A stretch of 64,000 bases of DNA, from assembly GCA_965235115.1 (NCBI GenBank), contig OZ249436.1:18912001-18976000 (forward strand). Reading direction: 5' to 3'. The translations under genes were made by a program, and so were the position numbers. The DNA comes from Laetmonice hystrix. Its lineage: Eukaryota. Each line of letters begins with the position of its first letter. The first letter of the stretch is position 1. The notes beneath the pieces are model-generated. The model was not told the DNA's origin, searched no databases, and saw only the letters and a program-made list of their open reading frames with translations. Positions 4,889 through 57,101 of the stretch are shown in pieces.

Positions 4889-23176
<18,288 letters not shown>

Positions 23177-32784: not shown

Positions 32785-35041
32785 CCTACTAGGCTGGTTG
32801 GAGAACCCAGATTTCTAGTGAAAGTGGGGGAAAATTCCTATCAAAACTTTCTTGGTGTCATTTAAATCAGAAACCTGTCCACTATCACATATTCAAAATC
32901 CCCATTAATCCCTTTTGGGGAAAAATTTGGACAGGAATTTGAAAGTTTTGATATCTTTTTGCGACTTTTTCACCATTTTGAGTCTAAAGATTACGGGGTA
33001 GGAGTAAGGATACCCTATGTAATAGGCCCTAGGGCCTAAACACACTAGGCGTGCGCGTGCACGCACCCGCACCGCCACGCACGCGCGTGCACGCGCACGC
33101 CAATAATTCCCAATGGAATTTCAATATGACCAAACACACTAGGCGTGCGCGTCACCTAGCGTCACGTCGCCTAGCGTGTTTGGTCATATTTGCACGCCAC
33201 GCAACGCTTCACCGGCATTGCTTGTCCAATCAGATTGCAGCATTTTGACCTACATTTTTTAGAAGGCCTAATTGACCTCTATCAGCTTGTCTGTGTCATC
33301 TTTTTAATATGTCATAGTTCAAAGAGTTAGTAGGCCTAAATGGAACCATCTCTACTATTCTTTTCGATACTATTCTATTCTATTCACGTCACTCAGGTTG
33401 TGATGGAAACCTGCGACAAGTGAGGTGAGGTATAGGCCTATATATAGGGGCCTAATCACTATATATTGTATACAGTCTACGCCAGTGCCAGGATGACCTT
33501 AACAGTCAATGTTTGGTAGAAATCATTCATGGGTAGCTCTATCTAGGAAAATATGGATTCCGTCTCATCTCGGAAGACGTGTGTAGGGGGGAGGGTCCAT
33601 TGTACTGCTCGACCACCAAAGCTTCCTTTTTAGGGAAGTGGCGGTGGCCGAGTGGGCATGGGCGTCGATACCTTATGCTATGCGAATGGGTGCAGTAATC
33701 TTGGGGCCGTAGTTCCATTCCTGTAGAGGACTAGGCCTATACAACTTTTCTCTTTAGGGACATTGTCAAAGTAATTGGGTTACGCCTGATGCCCGTGCAT
33801 TTCAAAAGAAAAATAGGCCTACAGTCAGCTAGGTGGCGTATTTAGGGGCCTTATCACTACAGGCAGGTGGGGTGTAATACTAAATCATGTGTAGCTCTAT
33901 CTAGGAAAATATGGATTCCGTCTCATTTCGGAACATGTGTGTAGGGGGGAGGGTCCATTGTCCTGCTCGACCACCAAAGCTCTTTTTTTTAGGGGAGTGG
34001 CGGTGGCCGAGTGGGCATGGGTGTCGACACCTTATGCTATGCGAATGGGTGCAGTAATCTTGGGGCCGGGGTTCGATTCCTGTAGAGGACGATACAACCT
34101 TTCTCTTTAGGGACATTGTCAAAGTAATTGGGTTACCCCTGATGCCCGTGCATTTCAAAAGAAAAATACAGGCAGGTGGGGGTATATAGGTTCCTAATCA
34201 CTACATGTTTGGGAGCCCTAGAAACCCTATCAGAATACTGCTAATGGTGGTTGCTAGGGAGATCAACGTAAAGGACATCTGTTGCTAGGCAACCACTTGA
34301 TTAAAACATAACATAATTATTAATACTCAATTCAGTGCACCCATTTATACGGGTAGGTGCCAGCCTTGCAACAGCCTTGTTTTATAAAGAAAAGAAGTAC
34401 ACCATCAAACTCCTTGGAGTTACTTTTTGGGCGGTAGGAGTGATTACGTTCTCCCTAGGGCCATTATTTATTGAGGTATATGACACTATACGAGTAGAAT
34501 GGCGGCCATGTTGAATTATGTCTGTTGCTAGGCAACCGTTGAGATTCCGACTTGGTAACTGAGATTACCCTAGAACTGGCCTTTACCATATTATACTCAA
34601 AAATGCCCCTTGAGGGCTCCAGAGAGACTTTTGCATAGAACTATCCCAGTCTATTGAGTCGTACATTTTGGAGATATTAAAGAAAGATGTTCTGTTGGGC
34701 CGCCATATTGGAATCCAAGATGGCGGCCTAACGGTACATATTTTCTGCTGGAAAAAAATGTGATTTAAACTGCTGTAGTGTTATTTGCCTGAAAAAGAAG
34801 TATAGGGCCTATTACATAGGGTATCTTTACTCCTACCACGTAATCTTTAGACTCAAAATGGTGAAAAAGTCGCAAAAAAATATCAAAAATTTCAAATTCC
34901 TGTCAAAATTTTTCCTCAAAAGGGATTAATGGGATTTTGAATGTGATAGTGGGCAGGTTTCTGCTTCAAATGACACCAAGAAAGCTTTGATAGGAATTTT
35001 TTCCCACTTCAAGCCTTCTCCAACCTGTCTATACATGTAGG
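32785..35041. repeat. ~250-bp inverted repeat pair (32785-33030 and 34803-35041)
   Basis: For example, CACCATTTTGAGTCTAAAGATTACG..GTAGGAGTAAGGATACCCTATGTAATAGGCCCTA is the reverse complement of the sequence starting at 34803, with scattered mismatches. Confidence 0.9.
33534..34168 (+). mobile_element. two tandem copies (33534-33815, 33892-34168) of a dispersed repeat with internal tRNA-like A/B boxes
   Basis: A box TGGCCGAGTGG at 34004-34014 and B box GGTTCGATTCC at 34070-34080. The 3' half is also present at ~19527-19657. Confidence 0.75.
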
Positions 35042-35149
35042 GGACTGTCTCAACGTTTGCACTGTCTCTTCAAATGCGCAGGATTTCCGACTGCGGATGG
35101 CCGCTGCTGCGGGCACGACGCCTGGCGGAACCTGAGGGTATACTACGCC

Positions 35150-37003
35150 ATGTGTGAGGCCGCGTTGGCGATGGCCCACGTGATGAGTTTGAACACGTGC
35201 AGCGCGCGTCAGCTGGCCCACGTGCCTGGGGTGAACACGACTCTCGCCGACGCCGTCATCAGGTACCGGGACTCACACGGCGGCTTCCGGCGTCTCGAGG
35301 AGTTGAAGGCGGTGACGGGCATGACGAGCTCCCAGTACAAGCTTCTCTGTCGCCATGTGTGTGTGTCCCCTCAGTCAGCCATGCTGGGAGTCGCGACCAA
35401 CCCCCGGGCCGTCGCTAAGCTCGGCCTGGCCAAGTCTCTCACTCAGTTTGTGTGTCAAGGGCAGTCCTTCTCGTCTGCTCGTGACTTACGTCATAGGAAA
35501 CCTTCCCAAGCTGACCAGGTCCAAGACGACAGTTCACTCCACCGGGACCCTCCTCCCAGCCCGTCGGCTGCCATTAGTGCCAACAAAACCTGTTTAACCA
35601 AGGAGAGAGTGACAGAGGACGGGAAGGCTGCACACTCTGCGGAAAGAGGGCGACCTCTGATCCTGGTGCCGAACATGGAACGGCCCTCGGACTGGAAGAA
35701 GTTGTACAAATATCATCGCTGGATGAGGAACTCAGCAGGACATGGGGTGAAATCACGGCGACATGAAATGGTCAAAGACAACAGGTGTGCTCCAGACAAG
35801 GATATGTCTATTAAACCATCAAATGAAGCTGTCCCAAGGAGCGTTGACCCAATCACGACAGGCCCGACCCTGAAGGACCCGTTGGTTGCCACCTGTCCGT
35901 ATACCTCGGTGAGTATCATGAACCTGTCGGGTACAGTCGACCGTCATCAACTTCCCGACACGAGCCGTCGGCCGACAGACGTCCAGCTGACCCTCGTGGG
36001 GAGCAGTGCCAGAACGGGTGACCTTAACCTTGATATGGTCGCCATTGACACTGTGGCAGGGGAAAACGATCGCGTCTGGCCTGGAGATCCATCCAACCAA
36101 AGCGGCGAAACAAGGCCGAAAGATGTGCCGGTAAAGCCCAGCATCTCTGCTGACAGATTACATTCAGACCATGCAGTTGTGCCAAAGCCATGCAATGTGG
36201 GAATGAGGTTGGGAAGATTTCTCAGCCAGAATGGCGTGTATCCGAATGGTGCGACTAGTTCAGCCTCTATGCCCAACGTCTCCCCATTGACCCGAGAAAA
36301 CATGCTCTTGTTTGACCACCACAGTCGGCTCCTTGAGTCAGACCGGCGCCTATTCATGGAGGCTTGGGTTGAGGATGTGAACGAGGCGAGGTGTATTGGG
36401 GAACACATCGTGAACACCACGGTCCACTCCGATCTGAACTCCCTGGTCGAAGCCAAGGACGGCGTAGAGGTCATCGAAATCTCGACAGGTGTCAGGGCAG
36501 TGGCAACGTGCCCAACTTTCAGGAACATCTCAAAGAGCGTTAAAATACAAGCAATAAAGGCATCAACTCAATCTCCGTTAGCGGTCTCTCCAGAGGTCAA
36601 TAGGCGGAATACTGTCTCAATGGACACTTACTGCGCCGGGGGCAAACTTCATGGCCAGCCGAGGGGTAAAGGAAACTTTCTGGGGGTAGACTGCAGGAAT
36701 CTGCAAGAAGGTTTCAAGCAGAATTCCACTGACAGGACGACCTCGATTCTTCAGACAACTGATACACACCAGAACTCTGACCTGACCCCACACTTTCAAC
36801 GTAGCGGCGGCCACAGGCATAGGACAATCCAGGACATTCAGTTGACGGGGAAATCTGAACCAACCAAGAAACTGAAGCGCATGGTCAACAACTACGTCCT
36901 GCAGCGAAACCCCACGGCACGGCACTCCCAGGGAGCCGGTACTCAGCTAACAACAAACCTCCTTAACCGGGCAAAGAGACAATGTTATTTCGTAGTTAAA
37001 TAA
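35150..37003 (+). CDS. uncharacterised protein with N-terminal tandem helix-hairpin-helix (ComEA/EEPD1-like) domain, ~617 aa
   Basis: Long stop-free ORF, first ATG at 35150 (gccATG), acceptor AG at 35080-35081. SLNTCSARQLAHVPGVNTTLADAVIRYRDSHGGFRRLEELKAVTGMTSSQYKLLCRHVCV fits the INTA..EL..LPG....A..I..YR...G.F...EDL..V.G pattern. Confidence 0.85.
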   Translation: MCEAALAMAHVMSLNTCSARQLAHVPGVNTTLADAVIRYRDSHGGFRRLEELKAVTGMTSSQYKLLCRHVCVSPQSAMLGVATNPRAVAKLGLAKSLTQFVCQGQSFSSARDLRHRKPSQADQVQDDSSLHRDPPPSPSAAISANKTCLTKERVTEDGKAAHSAERGRPLILVPNMERPSDWKKLYKYHRWMRNSAGHGVKSRRHEMVKDNRCAPDKDMSIKPSNEAVPRSVDPITTGPTLKDPLVATCPYTSVSIMNLSGTVDRHQLPDTSRRPTDVQLTLVGSSARTGDLNLDMVAIDTVAGENDRVWPGDPSNQSGETRPKDVPVKPSISADRLHSDHAVVPKPCNVGMRLGRFLSQNGVYPNGATSSASMPNVSPLTRENMLLFDHHSRLLESDRRLFMEAWVEDVNEARCIGEHIVNTTVHSDLNSLVEAKDGVEVIEISTGVRAVATCPTFRNISKSVKIQAIKASTQSPLAVSPEVNRRNTVSMDTYCAGGKLHGQPRGKGNFLGVDCRNLQEGFKQNSTDRTTSILQTTDTHQNSDLTPHFQRSGGHRHRTIQDIQLTGKSEPTKKLKRMVNNYVLQRNPTARHSQGAGTQLTTNLLNRAKRQCYFVVK

Positions 37004-38195
37004 TCCTCACCTAATGGTGGTATATTTCTGTGTCTTCCGAACTGCAGTCTGCTAAATTTAAATATAAAATGGTCAGATTATTTCTATAATAGATTGTAGT
37101 TAAAGGCCGGATTTTTATCTTTTAAACAAATACAATCGACCGTTCTTAAAACGATATTGAGAATCATGGCCAGTTGTGGTACCAAATTTAGTAAATAGTA
37201 TATCTTTAGCTATAATTCTGAGATAAAGTTAAAATCATTCGTGCGAACACGGGTATACGTATAATGTTCCATTCCGATATAACACAGCATGTAGGCCTAC
37301 TAAAGATTTTAAACGCCGCTAGGTGGCTATGTTCGGCAGATGCGCTGAGAGCCACTTTTCGTCGTTATTTTATTTCCGTCTGTTTCTCAATAAAATCAAA
37401 CTATAAAAACGTGATATGGACGGGCAGATCGATGTACGTGACGTTTTTGATGTTACCAACTCCCTCGAAGTGAAGGTTTGTGATATAACTGAGAGATGCT
37501 ATCCTGCATGGTAAAATTAAAACGATATCGCTTTGTTGGACACCTTTATTCGTCGACAAGGTCGAGGACCCTTCGAAATGATACGTCTGGAACAAATCAC
37601 TATATAACACAATGTATATAAAAAATAACTTTACTTCAACAAATCCGCTATACATATGTACAATTACACATGACCATTATAGGCCTACGGCCTACGACAG
37701 GTTATTCCAAGCTCAAAGTTCTTCAAATTTCTAACGTTAACTAGTGTATTCGAGACCGAAGCGTGAAGCGGCATGTCACAGTGTACATTGTAGTTTTAAT
37801 TAATTAATTTACTCTCCCCCCGGGGAAAGTAACATAATATCAACAGTGCCCTCCTGGAACAATTCGTATAGGTATTATAGTCCCTGTTTTTTTTAGCGGC
37901 GGAAGGGCGGTAATTACCCCCCCCCCCTCCCCCCCCCATTTTGGACGGCCTACCGACTTGAACCATTTAAAGCCATTTAATGCACCTTACATGCCCGTTG
38001 GCCTACAAATGGTGTCTTCATAGCCAGAAGCCAATCTTTCCCACCCTATAGCTTCAAGTATAGCCTAGTCCTCTAGACCTAGGCCGGGCCTATAGGCCTA
38101 GCCCCTACGGGTAGACACTTCTCGCCATAATCGAAAATGTTTGCAGACATCCTTCAAACAATTGCATTGTTTTCAGTCCTCAGCATATTATGGGG

Positions 38196-39772
38196 TTAGA
38201 AGTGTTTCTGGTGGGGGTGTAGTTGGGGCAGGGCCTCCACCCTGGAGGGGTTATCGTAGCGGGGTGGGTGGTAGAGCCCCCACTGGGGAACCTCCACCTG
38301 GCCGAGCGGCGGTCCATGTGGCTCCCTCTGGCGGCCCGCGGGAACCGGTCGCGCCTCCTGGCGGGGCCCGCCAAAAGCTGCCCTCTCGGTCGGTTTCGAG
38401 GTGAGCTCCCATGGCCACGTGCGCTCCTTGTGGTCGGCTTGACGGATAATGTCTTCCCTCCGGGAATACCACGACGGTACGGTGGACACTCGGCTCTTGG
38501 TGTACATGTCCGGGGCTCCCGCTGTCCACTTCCTCCATCCGCCCTGCACAGAACACGGACATAAGAATCTGAGGACGTGAACTCCCCCCCCCTTAATTAC
38601 CAGGATTCTGGTAAGTGGGGGTGGGGGTGGGGGTGGGGGTGGGGGGTGGTGGTCAGCATGGTTAATTCAGAAAGTACTATGAGGTAAAAAAAAAAGTTTT
38701 GTTACCAAAGCGGGGGGGGGGGGGGGGGTTCGAACTCCCCACCAACATCTGACCCTGCACAATCGTGTCATTTTAGTCCTCGCCTCAAAGCCCTAGACTA
38801 AGCTAGAGCCTCCCCCTAATGTATTTTAATTGTCGGACAAATGAAAATAAGCTTCAGCCTTGTATCAACCGGCACCATACAGTAGGCCTAAGCAGTTTCA
38901 GAACCAATCGCCAATTATTGTTATGGTAATTAAAGATTGACAGAAAAGGGTACAATAAAATTTAGCTATGTCAATATGCGGCTATATCGGTGTATGATTG
39001 AGTGAACTTACCTGGCCAAGGTCACAGTGACTCGTATGGTAGATGTTTGGCTGGTCAAGATGTGCCTGCCTGCAATCAGTATATCCAGGAATGATACCCC
39101 TCTAACAGTGGTGTTTTGGGTTTTGTTGTTGTTGTGTTTTTTGTTTTGGAGGGGGGGGGGGGCGATCAACTCCCTTTCGATGTCTTTGATATTTGTCGGG
39201 GGGGGGGGGAGACGCGGATCCAGGGGGCCACGTGCCCCCCCCCTCCCCCAACCCCCAAAAGTGGCTGATCCCCGGTCTATAATTCGGGCCCTTTTTACCA
39301 TTATAATCTATAGGATTCCGACTGTGCCCCCGAGCACACCCCTTCTGGATCCGCCCGGGGGGGGGGGGGGGGGGGGCTTGTGATTAGGTGTCTTGTAAAC
39401 GTGTGTGCTGGGGGGGGGGGGTCTTGCGATTTGGTGTCTTGTAAACGTGTGTGTGCGTTGGGGGGCCTCATAATCTGGGATAACGACCCCCCCCCCCCCC
39501 CCCCCCCCCAAATCACCTTGACACAGAAAGAACATGGCGGGAAAACATTGTGTATAGGGTGTAGGCATACGTGCATGCGTGACTATGAGATATAACAGCT
39601 AAAGTTTTGCATGGTTTCTTTAAAGCTTATATATCTCTCTCTCTCAGTGGATAGGTTACAGAATGTAATATTTGACAAGTCACCTCTACAACTTCAGTAG
39701 GCCGAGCAGACTACTCACCACATTGTGGGCATACTGGCAAGTGGGTTTGTTCTCTGTCTCGTGTGAACCCAT
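38196..39772 (-). CDS. uncharacterised 163-aa protein, 3 coding exons (39772-39719, 39101-39012, 38543-38196)
   Basis: Donors GTGAGT and GTAAGT, both phase 0, give one open frame: MGSHETENKPTCQYAHNV-RGIIPGYTDCRQAHLDQPNIYHTSHCDLGQ-GGWRKWTAGAPDMYTKSRV...HPHQKHF*. Last exon is GC3-rich. Confidence 0.72.
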
Positions 39773-39953
39773 GACGGTTCCAGCGTTGTGGGGTAGGACG
39801 CCATAATATTCCCGGTGACCAGCGATCAGGGTAAATTTTACCAAAGGTTAGTAAACACACTGGCTGACTGACTGCTCGTGTCATGCGCAGTGAAACATTA
39901 GTACTGGCTCTTATTAACACTCAAACATTACTGTCTGTAGCGTCTCCGCGCTC

Positions 39954-39966
39954 CCTGCTTAGCAAC
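39954..39966. promoter_or_regulatory. RFX X-box-like element in a putative bidirectional promoter
   Basis: CCTGCTTAGCAAC (reverse GTTGCTAAGCAGG) lies between the divergent ATGs at 39772 and 40278. Confidence 0.4.
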
Positions 39967-40277
39967 GGTAAAACAATCACCTGTTGGTCGCTCGTAGCAC
40001 AGAAAATCACCATATTTCTTAGCGGCTTGGACTAATCATTTGATACACGTGAAACTTTTTATCAAGAGTTCTCACCTTATGTCGGCAATGTTGTCATAAC
40101 GAACGGATTAATTTGTTAAGTACGAGGTATATTATCGTGATCGCAAGGGGCCTACCAATTAGCCAGCGTCTTACAAGCGTCGTTAGCGACGGGACAGTAC
40201 CGGGACGTGACCTGACGGACGCCCAGCCCGCAGTCAGTCGGTGAGCGTTGAGAAACGTGTGGAATATTGTCGTAACA

Positions 40278-41571
40278 ATGACATCAACCAACAGAGAGCC
40301 AGACTGGGCCCGGGTACCCCCACACGTGCCAACCTACCCCAACCCTCCCGCCTACTTCAGGTAACGATTTTACCGTTCTTCATTTCGTCTGCTGCCGAGA
40401 GACACTCTACGATTATACATTGACAGTGTTATTGTAATATTGATTGATTGCAATGGGGTCAGAAATTCGAGCTTCAAAGAAGTGTTGAAGTTAGTCCGAT
40501 GAGTCAGTGTTTTATTGGGGCGGGAGGGGGACGACCTCCTGTAGTGAAAGCTCAGAGATTCATTTATAACTTACATGGAGTGACTGCGTGTATCACTTGT
40601 TCTCTTTGCCTTAAAGCGGAGCGTTTTAAGTAGAACTCTGTGAACCCAAGTTCTACATTTAAATTGTTGAAGAAAAAAAGAAATACTGGAAGCACATTGC
40701 CACATATGCCTATAAGTATCTGTTCGATAATAGGCATTGATATGGGCCAAGAGGTGAGGTATTAGTTACTAACGACAGAATGTCTTTATCACACTGTTTC
40801 AGACAAACGCCTGCCAACAGATACACTGCACAGACTGGAGACAAAGGTTATTCGGTACGCTGTCCCACTCATGGCTATACTTCGTAATCACCAATACAAT
40901 AAATCAATTAGATGATGACACTTAAGGTGGTTATAGCAGGGGTACTCTTTAAACTAGGAATGTTTTCTGGACTCCCCATTATCTTGTGGTTCACCTTATC
41001 TAGAAAAGATTTTTTACAGGTTTTCTGTGACTGGTTTTAAAAAACAACTTATAATATCAAGTGAGGTATCTCTGGTCACACGCCACAATGTTCTATCATA
41101 GATTTGATATAGATTGATAGAATTATACATCAGTGATTCCCTTCATGTGACCATTAACTTTCCTTTTGTTGCCAGACGTGGTGGAGTAAATGGCACCCAG
41201 CCAGACCCGTGGAGTGGCGTGAAGAACATTACAGGACCGACCCAGAGACGCCTGCCATGCGTAAGATCGCCTTTGAGAAGGGCACCTTGAAACCTGGTCA
41301 TGTAGCGTCGTGGGAGCAGCCGCCATGGCGCCAGCAGTACCTCCGACAGGGACTGCCTGAGGCGGAGACTGTCCGGGCCCGCGGCCTCAACCGTGCTTAC
41401 ACTGTCAGCAATGATAAAAACGTCTACCAGTTCTCGAACGCTATGACGTCAACACAGTACCGGAAACCCGTCACGGGCGTCTACGGACCAATGTTACGTC
41501 AGAATGTCTATGGGGTCAATACACAGCACAACAATCATGGCTTCATGAACTTCCAAGATTTGTACTTCTGA
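40278..41571 (+). CDS. uncharacterised 176-aa protein, 3 coding exons (40278-40360, 40803-40854, 41176-41571)
   Basis: Frame-consistent GT-AG splicing gives MTSTNREPDWARVPPHVPTYPNPPAYFR-QTPANRYTAQTGDKGYS-TWWSKWHPARPVEWREEHYRTDP...GFMNFQDLYF*. AATAAA at 41584. Confidence 0.78.
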
Positions 41572-43681: not shown

Positions 43682-46600
43682 TCATCCCGCTGATGACCCT
43701 GATGACCCCAGTACCTGGCCCTCCACCACAGAGTCCGTGGTTGGTTGTTTTCGGTCTGTGTCACCGTAGTGTTTCTTGCTGATCAGGATCAGGACCATTA
43801 AAGCTGGGATGTGAATAAGGCTGAACCGGAAGAGTTTCCGTGATGACTTGCTGTCACCATCACGATAAAACCTCCAACCCAAGTAGGCAAAATACAAGTT
43901 GAGAGGCAAGGAATCAGCCGCAAAGGTCCATGTTGTAACATCAAGTACTGGCGCTAGAGTACACAGGCCTATCATGGCCACAGTGTGGCGAAACGCAACA
44001 CGTTTACAGAGCTCAGGGTTCATGACCGAGCACATCTGGTATCCGGCCCGCGAGTAGTCCTGTCTTAGATTCCAACTGAGGGAGTTGAAATGTGGGAACT
44101 GCCAAGAATATAATATTGCGCCAAGCAACAACGCTCCTGTTTGGAGAAATAGAGAACAGAAGATGCTAAAAAACACATTTTGACCAGCCCTGCTACATAC
44201 TGACACCACTGTTAATCAAATCAGCATACATACCAATTATTATGTAATATATTACTCTTTTTTTTACAATTTCCGACTTAAGCGAATTTTTTATGGTAGT
44301 GTTTGAGGCTAGACCTCTTCCTGTGTAAAATATCTCTCTTTTAAATAAAGCCATGTCATCAGAAGATTTAGGTTGCCCCACCATTTCTATAGCAGGTGAG
44401 ACTGTTGTGTAAAACTACTCAGGTGTACAATAAGATACCCACTTTAAATAGTAGCTTGTCAAGGAGTGGCTGACCTACTGACCTGGATCTAGGTGTCCTG
44501 CACAGGCAGCCCATCCCATCATGGGCGGGATGGCTCCAACGACAGACCCTATCCAGGTATTGGCGATATGGAGTCGTTTCATTGGTGTGTAGACAAGGGT
44601 ATAGAGGCCAAGGTTAGCGGCTCCGAGAGCTGCTGTTAGGGGGTTCACGCCGAGGGCGAGGATACTCAATCCACAAGCTCCGGATATAGTGGCAAAACCA
44701 ACCGCATGGAGGGGGCTGTAACATAGTCAGTCATGTCAACTGTCAACCATCGCATAAATCCATACAAATTGTTAGTCAATTTTGTCAACCATCAAGTAAA
44801 TCTGGACAATCTTAGTCAATCATGTCAACCATCAAATAAATCCATACAAATTGTTAGTCAATCATGTCAACCATCAAATAAATCCATACAAATTGTTAGT
44901 CAGTCATGTCAACCATCAAATAAATCCATACAAATTGTTAAGTCAATCATGTTAACCATCAAATAAATCCATACAAATTGTTAGTCAATCATGTCACCCA
45001 TCAAATAAATCCATACAAATTGTTAGTCAATCATGTTTAATTGTTAACCATCAAGTAAATCTGGACAATCTTAGTCAATCATGTCAACCATCAAATAAAT
45101 CCATACAAATTGTTAGTCAATCATGTCAACCATCAAATAAATCCATACAAATTGTTAGTCAATCATGTCAACCATCAAATAAATCCATACAAATTGTTAG
45201 TCAGTCATGTCAACCATCAAATAAATCCATACAAATTGTTAAGTCAATCATGTTAACCATCAAATAAATCCATACAAATTGTTAGTCAATCATGTCAACC
45301 ACCAAATAAATCCATACAAATTGTTAGTCAATCATGTTAACCATCAAGTAAATCTGGACAATATTAGTCAATCATGTCAACCAACAAGTAAATCCGGATG
45401 TTAATTTATTTTTTTATGGAAACCTTTAAATTCTGTCAATGTCAAAATATTTTATTTTGCAAACTATATATTTTTTTCCTGCAATACCTGTCTAACTGTA
45501 CAATTTTTCACACTTGTTTTCCATGCGATTCCATAGTACATGTTTCAATACTATGCGGTTGGGGAAGAAAAGAGGAATGTAGTCTGACCAAATTTGATAC
45601 TTTTCTTCAACTCACCTCAATAATCCTCTCACTAAAACACGGTTCTTGGTTCGGTTCATCTGAGAGTCATATGGGACTTCAAAGAACTGGAAGAAAAGAA
45701 ACAATATACTATTTTACAAAATGACCCCCAAACAAGTATCATTTCAAAATTTCACCACACTGACCCTTGCTAATATGTCAGAGGAATTAAAAATTGTTAA
45801 TTCGGGCAAGTGTTCGGGCAAGTGTTAAAAATGTTCACTTGCCCAGACCCAATGTTGACTTGCCATATGGCTGATGGGAATAAAACAGTTTTAAAACAAA
45901 TTTTGACAGGAGGAAAAATGAAATTTTGTTGTACAAAACTGTATGAAAATGGAAATAAGATAACAAAATAAGTTGATATCATCAATTTATATTATTCTAC
46001 TTGCCAGTTTGGGCAACTGTGTTTTTATTTTACTTGGTGGAATAGGTTTTTAAGTTGCCCCGGGCTAGCGGGCTAGTGCTTATGTAATGCCCTGGACATT
46101 TTGAAAAAACTTCACTCCAAGGCTATGTGCACCCCTTACAGCACTGGTTCTAGTTCTTTGAATGTTTCTATCAGAGTCTGGGGTAGTTGACAGTACCTGG
46201 TTTATGGTATTGGCAGATGCTGATGTCAGTGCTGTCCCCAGGGTGCAGAGACCAAATGTGGTGGGACTGAAAGCCCCTGGAGCTATGGCGTATCCTGCCA
46301 TAGAAGTCAGCACAACCAAACCTAGATAATCAAAGATATTTCATGATCATATTCAGCCACAGTCTGAGTTATTCAGAGAAAAAACCGAAGTAAGAATAGA
46401 AGGTACAAGTATCTCAAACAGATAAAACTGTTTGCCAATTATAATGGAGATGGGTTGCAATTTTTTAATCAAATTAAACTCCCCATTCTGAGAGCGATTC
46501 CCCCATGCGGTGATGCGACATGACTCATGAAATGCTTTTCTCACAGTTATAGTGGCGATCGGCATTTTTAGAGGTTGTTTTACTAGGCATTTTTTAGATT

Positions 46601-47568
46601 TGATCGGTATGGTACTTACGTAAACACACAAATTATCAGACTGTTGTTGCCTACCTGTGAGCCGTATTTTTGACAACATGAGGTAATAAAACAGAAGTTT
46701 TTTCTGATCCAGAATTATGGGTTTCCATATCAGTTCATCAATTGACTGGATACTTGGATCCTCTGATGTCTTTTCATCATCCACAACCATCTGTTTCTGT
46801 TTGATTTCTGTTCGGTACTTCTCATTAAATTGTACATTAACTAGATGGTCACTCTTCCTAAAGAATAAAGTGACAGCAGGTTCTTGTGATAGCAGTCGTA
46901 CATTGAAGGTCCGAGCTGATGGTCTGTGGTACACCGTGACCTGATCCTCGGACTGTAGAGAAGACTCTGCCTCCATCGACTCTGTACCACTGTGTTCACA
47001 ATTAACAATATTCTCTATCAATGCTGTATCACTGCGTTCACTGTTGACACAATTGTTTACTGACTGAGTATGATTGTGTTCCTGGTCCCGACTGTGGACC
47101 ACTGACCCTTGTGGATCTTTCACTATCCTTCTGATACTAGAATCAGAGTCTGTTGTTTCCTTATGTCTGGTTGATCCCTGCAATACACAGGGAAGGTAGT
47201 GGTGAGAAAAAATACAAAATCTTCTATAAGTTAAGTTCTTTAAAGTTTCTTTCGGGTAATTATAACCATTGGCAGTTGAAAGAGCTGAACTACAGTCCAA
47301 CAGCTCAACTTGGTCAGAAATACTCGAGATTGACAGGATGGGGTCATCCCACTTTACCCTCATGAAAACAAGAAAAAACGATTGGATCCAATAACCAACA
47401 AATATACTGAACCAAACTTACACTTGCTAGCCTTGTCTGCTGGAGTGGACTTCTCCTCAGAGCAAACAACTGGGAGTGGGCACAGCTCAAGATGTGGCGC
47501 ATCGTCACGTGACTGACGGGATGCAGCTGCACCAGAGACCTCCATGTAAGGTGGAAGCAGCGCTCCAT
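43682..47568 (-). CDS. COX10: protoheme IX farnesyltransferase (heme O synthase), mitochondrial, ~517 aa
   Basis: Exons 47568-47422, 47177-46655, 46321-46197, 45686-45616, 44715-44483, 44136-43682. Motifs [95 protein letters not shown]. Confidence 0.97.
44725..45395. repeat. 42-bp intronic minisatellite, ~16 copies
   Basis: Unit TTAGTCAATCATGTCAACCATCAAATAAATCCATACAAATTG. A variant unit (CAAGTAAATCTGGACAAT) recurs at ~44793, ~45052 and ~45345. Confidence 0.92.
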
Positions 47569-55895: not shown

Positions 55896-57101
55896 ATGCC
55901 CAAAATGTCGAAAGAGTTTGACTACAAGAAGTTGATTGAACTGGTGAAGGAGAGAGAATTCCTCTACAACCCCCTCCATGAAGACCACAGAGATCTGAGT
56001 GCAGCCACTGTGGCCTGGAAGTCCATTGGAGAGGCTTTGGGGGTGTCTGGTAAGTTCATTACACCCTCCCCCCCGTAACTGTGACCAGAATCTTTATTAG
56101 GCCTAATGTATGTCCGTCAGAGATATGGACAACACTAGTTTAGACTATGAGGAGCCATTTAAGTTCTCTGCATCACAGGCTACATGCAACCCCTCCGCCC
56201 GCCCCCCCCCCCCCAGCTCGAAAGTGATAGAAAATATGGATTGTACAATAATAAAAAACTATTAAAAATATCGCAAATCTTCATTGTTTAGATTTTGCTG
56301 CAGCAGATCTGACTTATATATATTTGATAAGGTCGATATTAATATGGAAGTGTTTTCTCTTGATCAAGCCGACGAGGCGAAAAAGAAATGGTGGTCAAAA
56401 AAAGACAACTACAGACGACACAAGATAGCAACGCTCCGCCATGACCAGGCAACCAGCTGGAGATGGTGGAAACAACTACGCTTTCTCGATCATTACTTTG
56501 AGGAGAAAGACAACCGCAGTCCTCGGTATGCACACCTAAACTAATATTTGCAGCCCCTGGCGTTTTGTCACCCCCTCATTTACTTTGATGTAGTGCAATC
56601 CCATTAGCTTGTCGGGAGAAAGCGAGGGTTGGGATTAGTGATGTACCGTACATATATTGCTTGCACAGGATGAACCTATAAAACAGACGGGATTGATAGA
56701 ATGAATAATTCTGTGTATCTCTCTGTAGTGGTCGACCAGTAAAGCACATTGACTGCAGACCACCTGACCTCATGGATATCCCGGTGGCTCTCACTGATGG
56801 AAATCTCCCATTCTCAGTGAAGCCTGATCCCACGTTACTTGACGCCTCGGATTCTGGATCTGGTATGGCGGATACATGGCCACAGAGTGAGGACAGCCTG
56901 CCAGTTGAGCACACTGTGGACACTGAGCCGACAACAGTGAGAGCCTACAACCAAAGCCACACGTCAGCCATGGAGGATGCCGACGATCTCTTCATGAGGT
57001 CTTGTTTGATGCATCTGAAACGTTTACCCGAGCGGTCGAGAATGGAAACCAAAATGGAAATTCTAAACCTGTTGTACAGAAAACAGTACGGTGACGAGTG
57101 A
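55896..57101 (+). CDS. MADF- and BESS-domain protein (Adf-1-like), ~227 aa
   Basis: Exons 55896-56049, 56369-56525, 56729-57101. LIELVKEREFLYN..H.D.....AWKSIGEAL...EAKKKW..KDNYRR...WRWWKQLRFL (MADF). DADDLFMRSCLMHLKRLPERSRMETKMEILNLLY (BESS). Confidence 0.9.

Follow-up and report, generated by a model that had tools for sequence, protein, structure and literature searches.

What do two small orphan genes do that point away from each other across a short shared spacer, and do they descend from one ancestor? Both questions are raised by a pair of three-exon genes, here called gene A (minus strand) and gene B (plus strand), in a 64,000-nucleotide (nt) stretch of the Laetmonice hystrix genome (assembly GCA_965235115.1, contig OZ249436.1, positions 18,912,001 to 18,976,000 of the forward strand); this whole stretch is referred to as the window, and all positions are counted from its first letter. 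Ancient spiralian-specific genes have been catalogued, nearly none of them with a function or an origin, and the pair directly tests both. We report that both genes are real and that gene B is spliced. From sequence comparison, the pair appears to be ancient and restricted to Spiralia among named animals. The genes form an orphan pair that stays together, as far as identifiers indicate, from annelids to bivalves; their gene structure keeps a trace of common ancestry, and a candidate ciliary promoter lies between them. Their joint use in motile cilia or sperm flagella is proposed tentatively.

Gene models and splicing

An earlier note on this DNA had drawn two divergently oriented three-exon genes at this place, and this arrangement is borne out by the gene models, by relatives and by the splicing of gene B (Table 1). 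The drawing of gene B as a plus-strand gene with three exons and a protein of 176 residues was reproduced unchanged. The window sequence is present in four public runs (X1-X4), none of them recorded as RNA, which represent one sample. A single X4 contig omits precisely the 442-nt and 321-nt GT..AG introns of gene B and joins both junctions, with a short side of 25 nt at the exon 1 joint. No gene B splice joints were found in X1-X3, which do cover both introns. X4 contig sequence also spans 40211-40360, the end of the spacer and gene B exon 1. Gene B is real and spliced; because the runs come from one sample, its joints show splicing, not tissue. Exon 3 carries a W-x-K-W motif shared with gene A, followed in order by the conserved YQFSNAMTSTQY and HG-F-M-x-x-x-D-x-Y blocks.

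In the case of gene A, the earlier strand, length of 163 residues and count of three exons stand, and exon 1 and the acceptor of exon 2 had to be redrawn. An ortholog comparison was made with a contig of another genome (JAAUXT010112875.1, locus L017); intron positions were read directly in the window, in L017 and in JGI loci. Gene A exon 1 is 51% identical to L017 over 39 codons (tblastn). The L017 gene A exons 1 and 2 are 86 and 58 nt long, the same as 39804-39719 and 39069-39012 of the window, and the candidate gene B exon 2 there is also 52 nt. The frame from the ATG at 39804 is conserved in L017, which has no ATG at the start chosen previously, and over 106 codons the mismatches at codon positions 1, 2 and 3 number 34, 30 and 58. 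Scored against a family profile of 15 relatives that excluded the window, the model with acceptor 39070 reached 151 bits and aligned across the junction without a gap, compared with 134 bits for acceptor 39100. The previous model, with start 39772 and acceptor 39102, scored lowest (123 bits) and was dropped.

Reading from acceptor 39102 amounts to a 10-residue insertion relative to the family profile, and L017 has unrelated sequence at the place of 39070-39102; this stretch may be used through a minor alternative acceptor. In the corrected model the protein again has 163 residues, and the two ATGs lie 474 bp apart rather than about 505 bp. X4 contig sequence spans 38039-38535, in the region of gene A exon 3; X4 gives no cover over exons 1 and 2 and has no bearing on gene A splicing, and the reads contained no gene A junction. 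Gene A is real, and its predicted exon model is the one with start 39804 and acceptor 39070. Two stop-to-stop open reading frames, 38180-38596 (-) and 39006-39383 (+), were rejected as genes (alternative frame, antisense overlap).

Seven coding allelic differences were observed in X1-X4, at 38286, 38439, 38487, 39799, 40340, 41208 and 39066; only one of them alters a protein, a Gln-to-His change in gene A exon 2, and the other six are silent.

Distribution of the two families

Gene B exon 3 has 14 relatives among 16 candidates, at 51-78% identity, and a gene B profile found 46 relatives among 3736. All named animals among them are annelids (Capitella CAPTEDRAFT_218862, Paralvinella, Ridgeia) or molluscs (including Mytilus, Mizuhopecten, Pinctada, Tegillarca, Pomacea, Arion and Littorina), and all of these proteins are 'uncharacterized'. 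The tree places the window's gene B among annelid rows, apart from the molluscs at 100/100, and annelid-to-mollusc identity is 40%. No flatworm gene B occurs among the named animal matches, most matches being unnamed. Two EukProt homologs of gene B (P0008 and P0110) are labelled Siedleckia nematoides and Piridium sociabile, both of which are parasites; their rows cluster with annelid and gastropod sequences and are probably host sequence in parasite transcriptomes.

The gene A family was detected solely by a full HMMER scan, in which exon 3 matched 26 representatives at E<=0.001 among 1.84 billion; a word-index search gave 0 of 2 candidates and a metagenome scan 0 of 222 stretches. Among 16 of the 26 matches that were examined, the named members are Capitella, Mytilus, Sepia, Argonauta, Lingula and tapeworms (Spirometra, Schistocephalus, Dibothriocephalus, Sparganum). 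Gene A is 31-39% identical to its mollusc, brachiopod and tapeworm relatives. One homolog, P0099 (Schistocephalus solidus, UniRef100_A0A183T1X4), is named 'NADH dehydrogenase iron-sulfur protein 4', a name that differs from those in the rest of its cluster and is probably a mis-annotation.

The earlier statement that neither protein has a recognised domain holds: neither last exon matched any Pfam family, and any one family occurs in at most 3 of 22 gene B and 1 of 27 gene A members. In the ESM Atlas, gene A exon 3 reached 0.90-0.91 to short prokaryotic clusters with fewer than 100 of 256 shared features, which was taken as chance; the best value for a gene B relative was 0.79, to unnamed clusters.

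Arrangement of the pair

The pair is also head-to-head in L017, with the gene A ATG at 9044 and gene B exon 1 near 9630. Each last coding exon at that locus (7817-8290, -; 10001-10558, +) has one intron more than in the window. The gene A and gene B relatives of Capitella (ELU06298 and ELU06299) have consecutive identifiers and each lies on a 10,718-nt contig; those of Mytilus galloprovincialis (LOC143075339 and LOC143075340) are likewise consecutive, each on a 102,992,780-nt contig. Adjacency in these two animals is implied by the identifiers, and head-to-head order was observed in the window and in L017. These linkages, together with a motif in intron register described below, uphold the earlier idea of an old inverted pair. 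No shared neighbours outside the pair were found by tblastx of the window against 18 loci. Beyond L009, L010 and L017, the upstream DNA of the loci is too short to judge gene A linkage.

A probable common origin

Both genes have intron 1 in phase 2 and intron 2 in phase 0, and exon 2 measures 58 nt in gene A and 52 nt in gene B. As had been noted before, both last exons begin in phase 0 and have W at +3 and +6, K at +5 and a Pro five residues after the second W. Among 338 gapless diagonals between the two family profiles, the best is the one that lays intron 2 upon intron 2; it covers Q, the junction and x-x-W-x-K-W-x4-P-[DE]-W. This diagonal kept first place when the junction columns were masked and when the window rows were left out. 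Shuffles put the intron 2 diagonal first in 3 of 1000 cases, and any of the five intron-pairing diagonals in 25 of 1000. A second, weak match, E/D-P-x-W in exon 1, ranks 31-42 of 26,364 windows. Phases and register are features of gene structure, which lends paralogy a weight that is independent of the sequence score.

Sequence scores are where a different origin finds its support, namely that A and B are unrelated orphans sharing a promoter and that their W-x-K-W likeness is chance or convergence. A versus B gives a BLASTP E of 3.9, hidden Markov model (HMM) scores across the families are at most 9.3 bits, and there is no global alignment, the C-terminal two-thirds of the proteins being unalignable. 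The hhalign probabilities of A versus B (0.5, 4.2 and 1.6%) are low as well, and out of 200 shuffles of each kind, 4 by column and 7 by block reached the 1.6% value. The profile-to-profile likeness anticipated earlier was thus weak as sequence similarity and held as a motif that lines up with a shared intron. An unrelated origin has to contend with the exact phase-0 register of the sole shared motif (rank 1 of 338), with the shared phase of intron 1 and with the exon 1 match, and we consider it doubtful. A and B probably share an ancestor, as judged from these comparisons; paralogy is likely but remote.

Protein properties

Family mean composition (P 11%, W 4-5%, Y 5-8%, H 4-6%) confirms that the proteins are rich in proline, tryptophan, tyrosine and histidine. 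The A and B proteins (163 and 176 residues) have isoelectric points of 9.6 and 9.8 and a grand average of hydropathy of -1.1, and neither contains a hydrophobic segment (best 19-residue means -0.33 and -0.05). Such a composition, in families whose range has its centre in annelids and molluscs, would suit structural proteins secreted to form chaetae, tube, shell or byssus. Such a role is most improbable, however, as neither protein has a hydrophobic segment to serve as signal peptide, and gene A is retained in tapeworms, which to our knowledge have no chaetae, tube, shell or byssus.

AlphaFold2 models of Capitella A and of a gene B relative consist of short helices and coil, with a predicted local distance difference test (pLDDT) of 58.5 and 49.8 and a predicted template modelling score (pTM) of 0.27 and 0.25; the alignments were shallow (27 and 32 rows), which the low confidence may reflect. 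Foldseek returned 1 and 0 rows at E<=10 and VIA-align a best Z of 3.0, and since the models are of low confidence these fold searches carry no weight. As modelled, the proteins appear to have the general build of microtubule inner proteins (MIPs), being small, hydrophilic and without an autonomous globular fold, a likeness that is necessary at most and not specific. The A and B proteins would be built like MIPs without being members of a known MIP family.

The intergenic spacer

The sequence GTTRCY was read, on our assumption, as an RFX half-site and GTAAACA as a forkhead consensus. The spacer contains a half-site-like element, TTAGCAACGGT, which is an 11-nt exact match to an element of gene B orthologs; 4 of 627 other 473-nt windows do likewise. 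Five distinct JGI loci have DNA upstream of gene B (L008, L009, L011, L013 and L016; L010 was left out because it is identical to L009 in that region), and in all five, two GTTRYY half-sites form a palindrome around AACGGTT. The palindrome is 21 bp long, with half-sites placed back-to-back in the orientation opposite to that of a normal X-box. It lies 120-244 nt upstream of gene B's conserved EPxW codons, in flanks that barely align, and in four of the five promoters GTAAACA follows 63-72 nt downstream. The palindrome pattern, defined after the loci had been seen, occurs in 1.1-1.6% of shuffles per locus. L017 has one strong half-site adjoining GTAAACA (rank 2; 11 of 379 windows).

Half-site RFX motifs exist in JASPAR (PMC5838959), and RFX motifs are the most enriched motif in multiciliated-cell promoters according to the covered part of 10.1101/085571. 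Taken together, the palindrome and the forkhead motif lend moderate support, not proof, to a ciliary type of regulation as predicted from these sequences.

Gene A in published gene lists

Oyster CGI_10011062 is among the 37 spiralian-specific genes of Wu et al. 2020 (PMC7441323, Supplementary Data 1, covered in part, as was the article). Its printed sequence matches P0080 by eye over about 90 residues, and P0080 is a match of gene A exon 3 with E 4.3e-7. CGI_10011062 thus appears to be the oyster ortholog of gene A, which would place gene A on the spiralian-specific list. Genes of this kind are shared by molluscs, annelids and flatworms and go undetected outside, a pattern that the named gene A relatives (annelid, molluscs, brachiopod and tapeworms) follow. 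The neighbouring oyster identifier, CGI_10011061, has 597 sites, a size that would fit gene B. A word-limited motif search of Supplementary Data 1 found no row like gene B. The same list holds CGI_10005224, CGI_10005225 and CGI_10014227, small related Trp/Tyr/Pro-rich orphans, two of them with consecutive identifiers; this set may include another pair of neighbouring genes built in a similar way.

According to the covered part of Piovani et al. 2023 (PMC10396302), 10 of the 37 genes are expressed in oyster ciliary-band clusters, eight of them being further ciliary-band genes from the list. Gene A could be one of these eight.

The literature search, which lay outside most supplements and subscription journals, returned no account of the function or pairing of either gene, a main-text search with six accessions returned none, and the papers listed for the oyster identifier were unrelated. 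No relevant match for expression was found in the covered parts of the PMC4232546, PMC5322547 and PMC12973173 supplements or in PMC5048140 (diversity table only), and no lophotrochozoan axoneme structure or proteome paper was located.

Table 1. Features of the gene pair and its spacer in the window
Feature	Position	Strand	Description
Gene A coding exon 3	38196-38543	-	115 codons plus stop; starts with W-x-K-W-x4-P; 26 relatives
Gene A coding exon 2	39012-39069	-	58 nt; acceptor AG ends 39070; donor GTAAGT; intron 2 phase 0
Gene A intron 1, 3' end	39070-39102	-	contains the IIPGYT reading; not conserved coding
Gene A coding exon 1	39719-39804	-	86 nt; ATG 39804; intron 1 phase 2; from L017 and family HMM
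Spacer between ATGs	39805-40277	.	473 nt; predicted 5' untranslated regions of both genes; putative bidirectional promoter
GTAAACA forkhead-type motif	39851-39857	+	0.17 per kb in the window
RFX-half-site-like element	39957-39969	.	TTAGCAACGGT at 39959-39969; left arm of the B-ortholog palindrome
Gene B coding exon 1	40278-40360	+	83 nt; ATG 40278; intron 1 phase 2; conserved in relatives
Gene B coding exon 2	40803-40854	+	52 nt; intron 2 phase 0; joined on both sides in a single X4 contig
Gene B coding exon 3	41176-41571	+	131 codons plus stop
Gene B candidate polyadenylation signal AATAAA	41584-41589	+	from sequence alone

Other features of the window

Just beyond the 3' end of gene A, a 669-codon open frame at 34994-37003 (+) has an N-terminal helix-hairpin-helix (Pfam HHH_3, E 4e-16). 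On the other side, exons at 43682-47417 (-) match UbiA prenyltransferase and belong to a gene which we take to be COX10. Long glutamine-rich and Ser/Pro-rich exons at 10506-11411 and 21128-23176 (+), with no Pfam match, probably belong to one gene, and an exon at 56709-57101 (+) contains a BESS motif.

Discussion

The results are consistent with A and B being a co-regulated structural pair of motile cilia or sperm flagella, a reading that we put forward tentatively and hold at slightly short of an even chance. Under this proposal, an inverted duplication before the annelid-mollusc split probably created the pair, which would have been kept head-to-head through one short promoter serving both genes. 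Cells in which motile cilia or sperm flagella are built would turn on both genes through an RFX-type factor, together with a forkhead factor such as FoxJ1. The two proteins, which would be small, basic, hydrophilic and without a stable fold alone, may lie extended on the axonemal microtubule lattice as MIPs do, gripping it by short helices and by conserved Trp/Tyr/Pro motifs. Control by RFX, joint expression, a place in cilia and binding to microtubules are all steps that we infer. The earlier suggestion of a motile-cilium or sperm module is thus plausible, with the conserved half-site palindrome in its favour; of its two protein-motif arguments, the one from PGY is lost, and the TSTQY motif of the other lies outside the published Mn signature, as set out next.

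A number of results count against the ciliary proposal. MIP modules were taken as defined in the covered parts of Andersen et al. (PMC10973386): the Mn unit [TS]-[TS]-x4-[YF], which forms a short helix; the PYG-repeat patch, usually repeated; SNYG, [ST]-N-x-x-[ILVY]-G; NWE, [ILV]-L-I-G-N-W-x-E; and GFG repeats. By these definitions, PYG or PGY is present in 0 of 16 gene A rows, and PYG and PGY in one each of 19 gene B rows, unconserved. The IIPGYT once assigned to gene A falls within intron 1, and the argument from PGY to FAM166-type proteins therefore fails; no FAM166-type Pfam family was found in 22 gene B or 27 gene A members. SNYG, NWE and GFG are each absent from all 16 gene A rows and all 19 gene B rows. 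The MTSTQY of gene B, compared earlier with the short T-x-Y motifs of axonemal MIPs, is indeed conserved in the family, although the published Mn pattern is present in 0 of 19 B rows. It is present in 5 of 16 A rows, four of these at a conserved S-T-x-P-[DS]-W-Y that is in single copy, with Pro inside the expected helix. No known MIP module was found to be conserved in either family, and searches of the PDB with four family profiles gave no sequence at E<=10.

The promoter and the linkage of the genes contribute further points of this kind. The full X-box has 0 matches in the 473-nt spacer to three consensus strings, including RYYNYY N1-3 RRNRAC, given in the covered part of PMC2375033, and strict X-box forms were found in 0 of 7 regions. 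The half-site alone has rank 24 in the window, equalled or bettered by 195 of 1252 windows of the same length. The X-box-like site that had been placed between the genes thus survives as a half-site, recurring in the B-ortholog palindrome, and not as a full X-box. With 77-87% DNA identity to one another in exon 3, the five promoter loci are too closely related to count as five independent observations, and L017 is without the palindrome. Gene A was not found 4.4-4.7 kb upstream of gene B in L009 and L010, so tight linkage is not universal. In the covered parts of Wu et al. (PMC7441323), 18 of 20 spiralian-specific genes tested in the gastropod Tritia were ubiquitous; those parts do not say if gene A belonged to the 20. 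No expression, localisation or proteomic datum was located for A or B.

The Tritia result also lends support to a different role, that of intracellular proteins that are expressed broadly or are otherwise not ciliary, such as peptides associated with muscle or the cytoskeleton, with the promoter motif incidental. An ESM Atlas match of a gene B relative to Myofilin (0.76, below lead level) and the lack of a full X-box point the same way, but the Myofilin value lies within the range of shuffled proteins, and the half-site palindrome and forkhead motif recur at fixed spacing in B-ortholog promoters. We regard this role as quite unlikely.

RFX2 drives spermiogenesis genes, and A and B could be RFX-controlled spermiogenesis genes whose products are not axonemal (peri-axonemal, midpiece, acrosomal or chromatin-associated basic proteins). 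Small, basic, Arg/Pro-rich proteins with RFX-like half-sites and no known MIP module fit such a description. Gamete-recognition and protamine-like proteins are usually less conserved than A and B, however, and the observed conservation (40% for B, 31-39% for A) is high for either kind; invariant Trp, Tyr, Gly and Pro positions moreover suggest a fixed binding surface. A non-axonemal sperm function is accordingly improbable, to much the same degree as a non-ciliary one.

A bolder form of the ciliary proposal can be drawn, in which A and B are a spiralian-only class of ciliary structural protein with W-x-K-W-x4-P-[DE]-W as a new microtubule-binding motif, born more than 500 million years ago in a single inverted duplication, held together by a bidirectional RFX promoter and at work in the specialised long cilia of trochophore ciliary bands or in spiralian sperm, gene A being an unannotated oyster ciliary-band gene. 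Taken whole, this picture is rather unlikely. If the proteins are axonemal, they would be lineage-specific ciliary parts without a known microtubule-binding module. If the picture were true, this would make them the first structural components linked to a spiralian ciliary innovation and an example of 'lineage-specific' genes born by duplication and divergence. If they are not ciliary, the result is two uncharacterised conserved genes with corrected annotation.

Comparison with known systems

Compared with the PYG-repeat MIPs (FAM166/CIMIP2, SPMIP5, FAP129/222/252), A and B are alike in being small, low-complexity, Pro/Tyr-rich and non-globular, whereas the PYG/PGY repeat of those proteins is in neither family. 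With the Mn/SNYG/NWE MIPs (SAXO, SPMIP3/6/9, PIERCE, CFAP107) they have in common short helices, Thr/Ser with aromatics and an extended chain; unlike those proteins, they lack the published signatures save for the Mn pattern in some gene A rows, and the profile searches gave no PDB relative.

The gene A family was already catalogued by Wu et al., where CGI_10011062 is a list row only, without name or function; PMC7441323, as far as it was covered, gives no account of the pairing, of the gene structure or of a promoter element. Lophotrochin and trochin are ciliary-band genes with the Capitella accessions ELU14756 and ELT92671. These differ from the Capitella accessions of gene A (ELU06298 and ELU14973, among the 16 of 26 matches examined) and gene B (ELU06299), and DUF4476, the domain of lophotrochin, has no match in 22 gene B or 27 gene A members. 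Gene A therefore appears, from its sequence, to be neither trochin nor lophotrochin. It nevertheless comes from the same screen and has the same clade restriction as these two, and probably belongs to the same kind of cell. Prototrochin, ciliarybandin, mullerin and trochophorin, four of the eight further ciliary-band genes in the covered part of PMC10396302, stand on the same 37-gene list as gene A.

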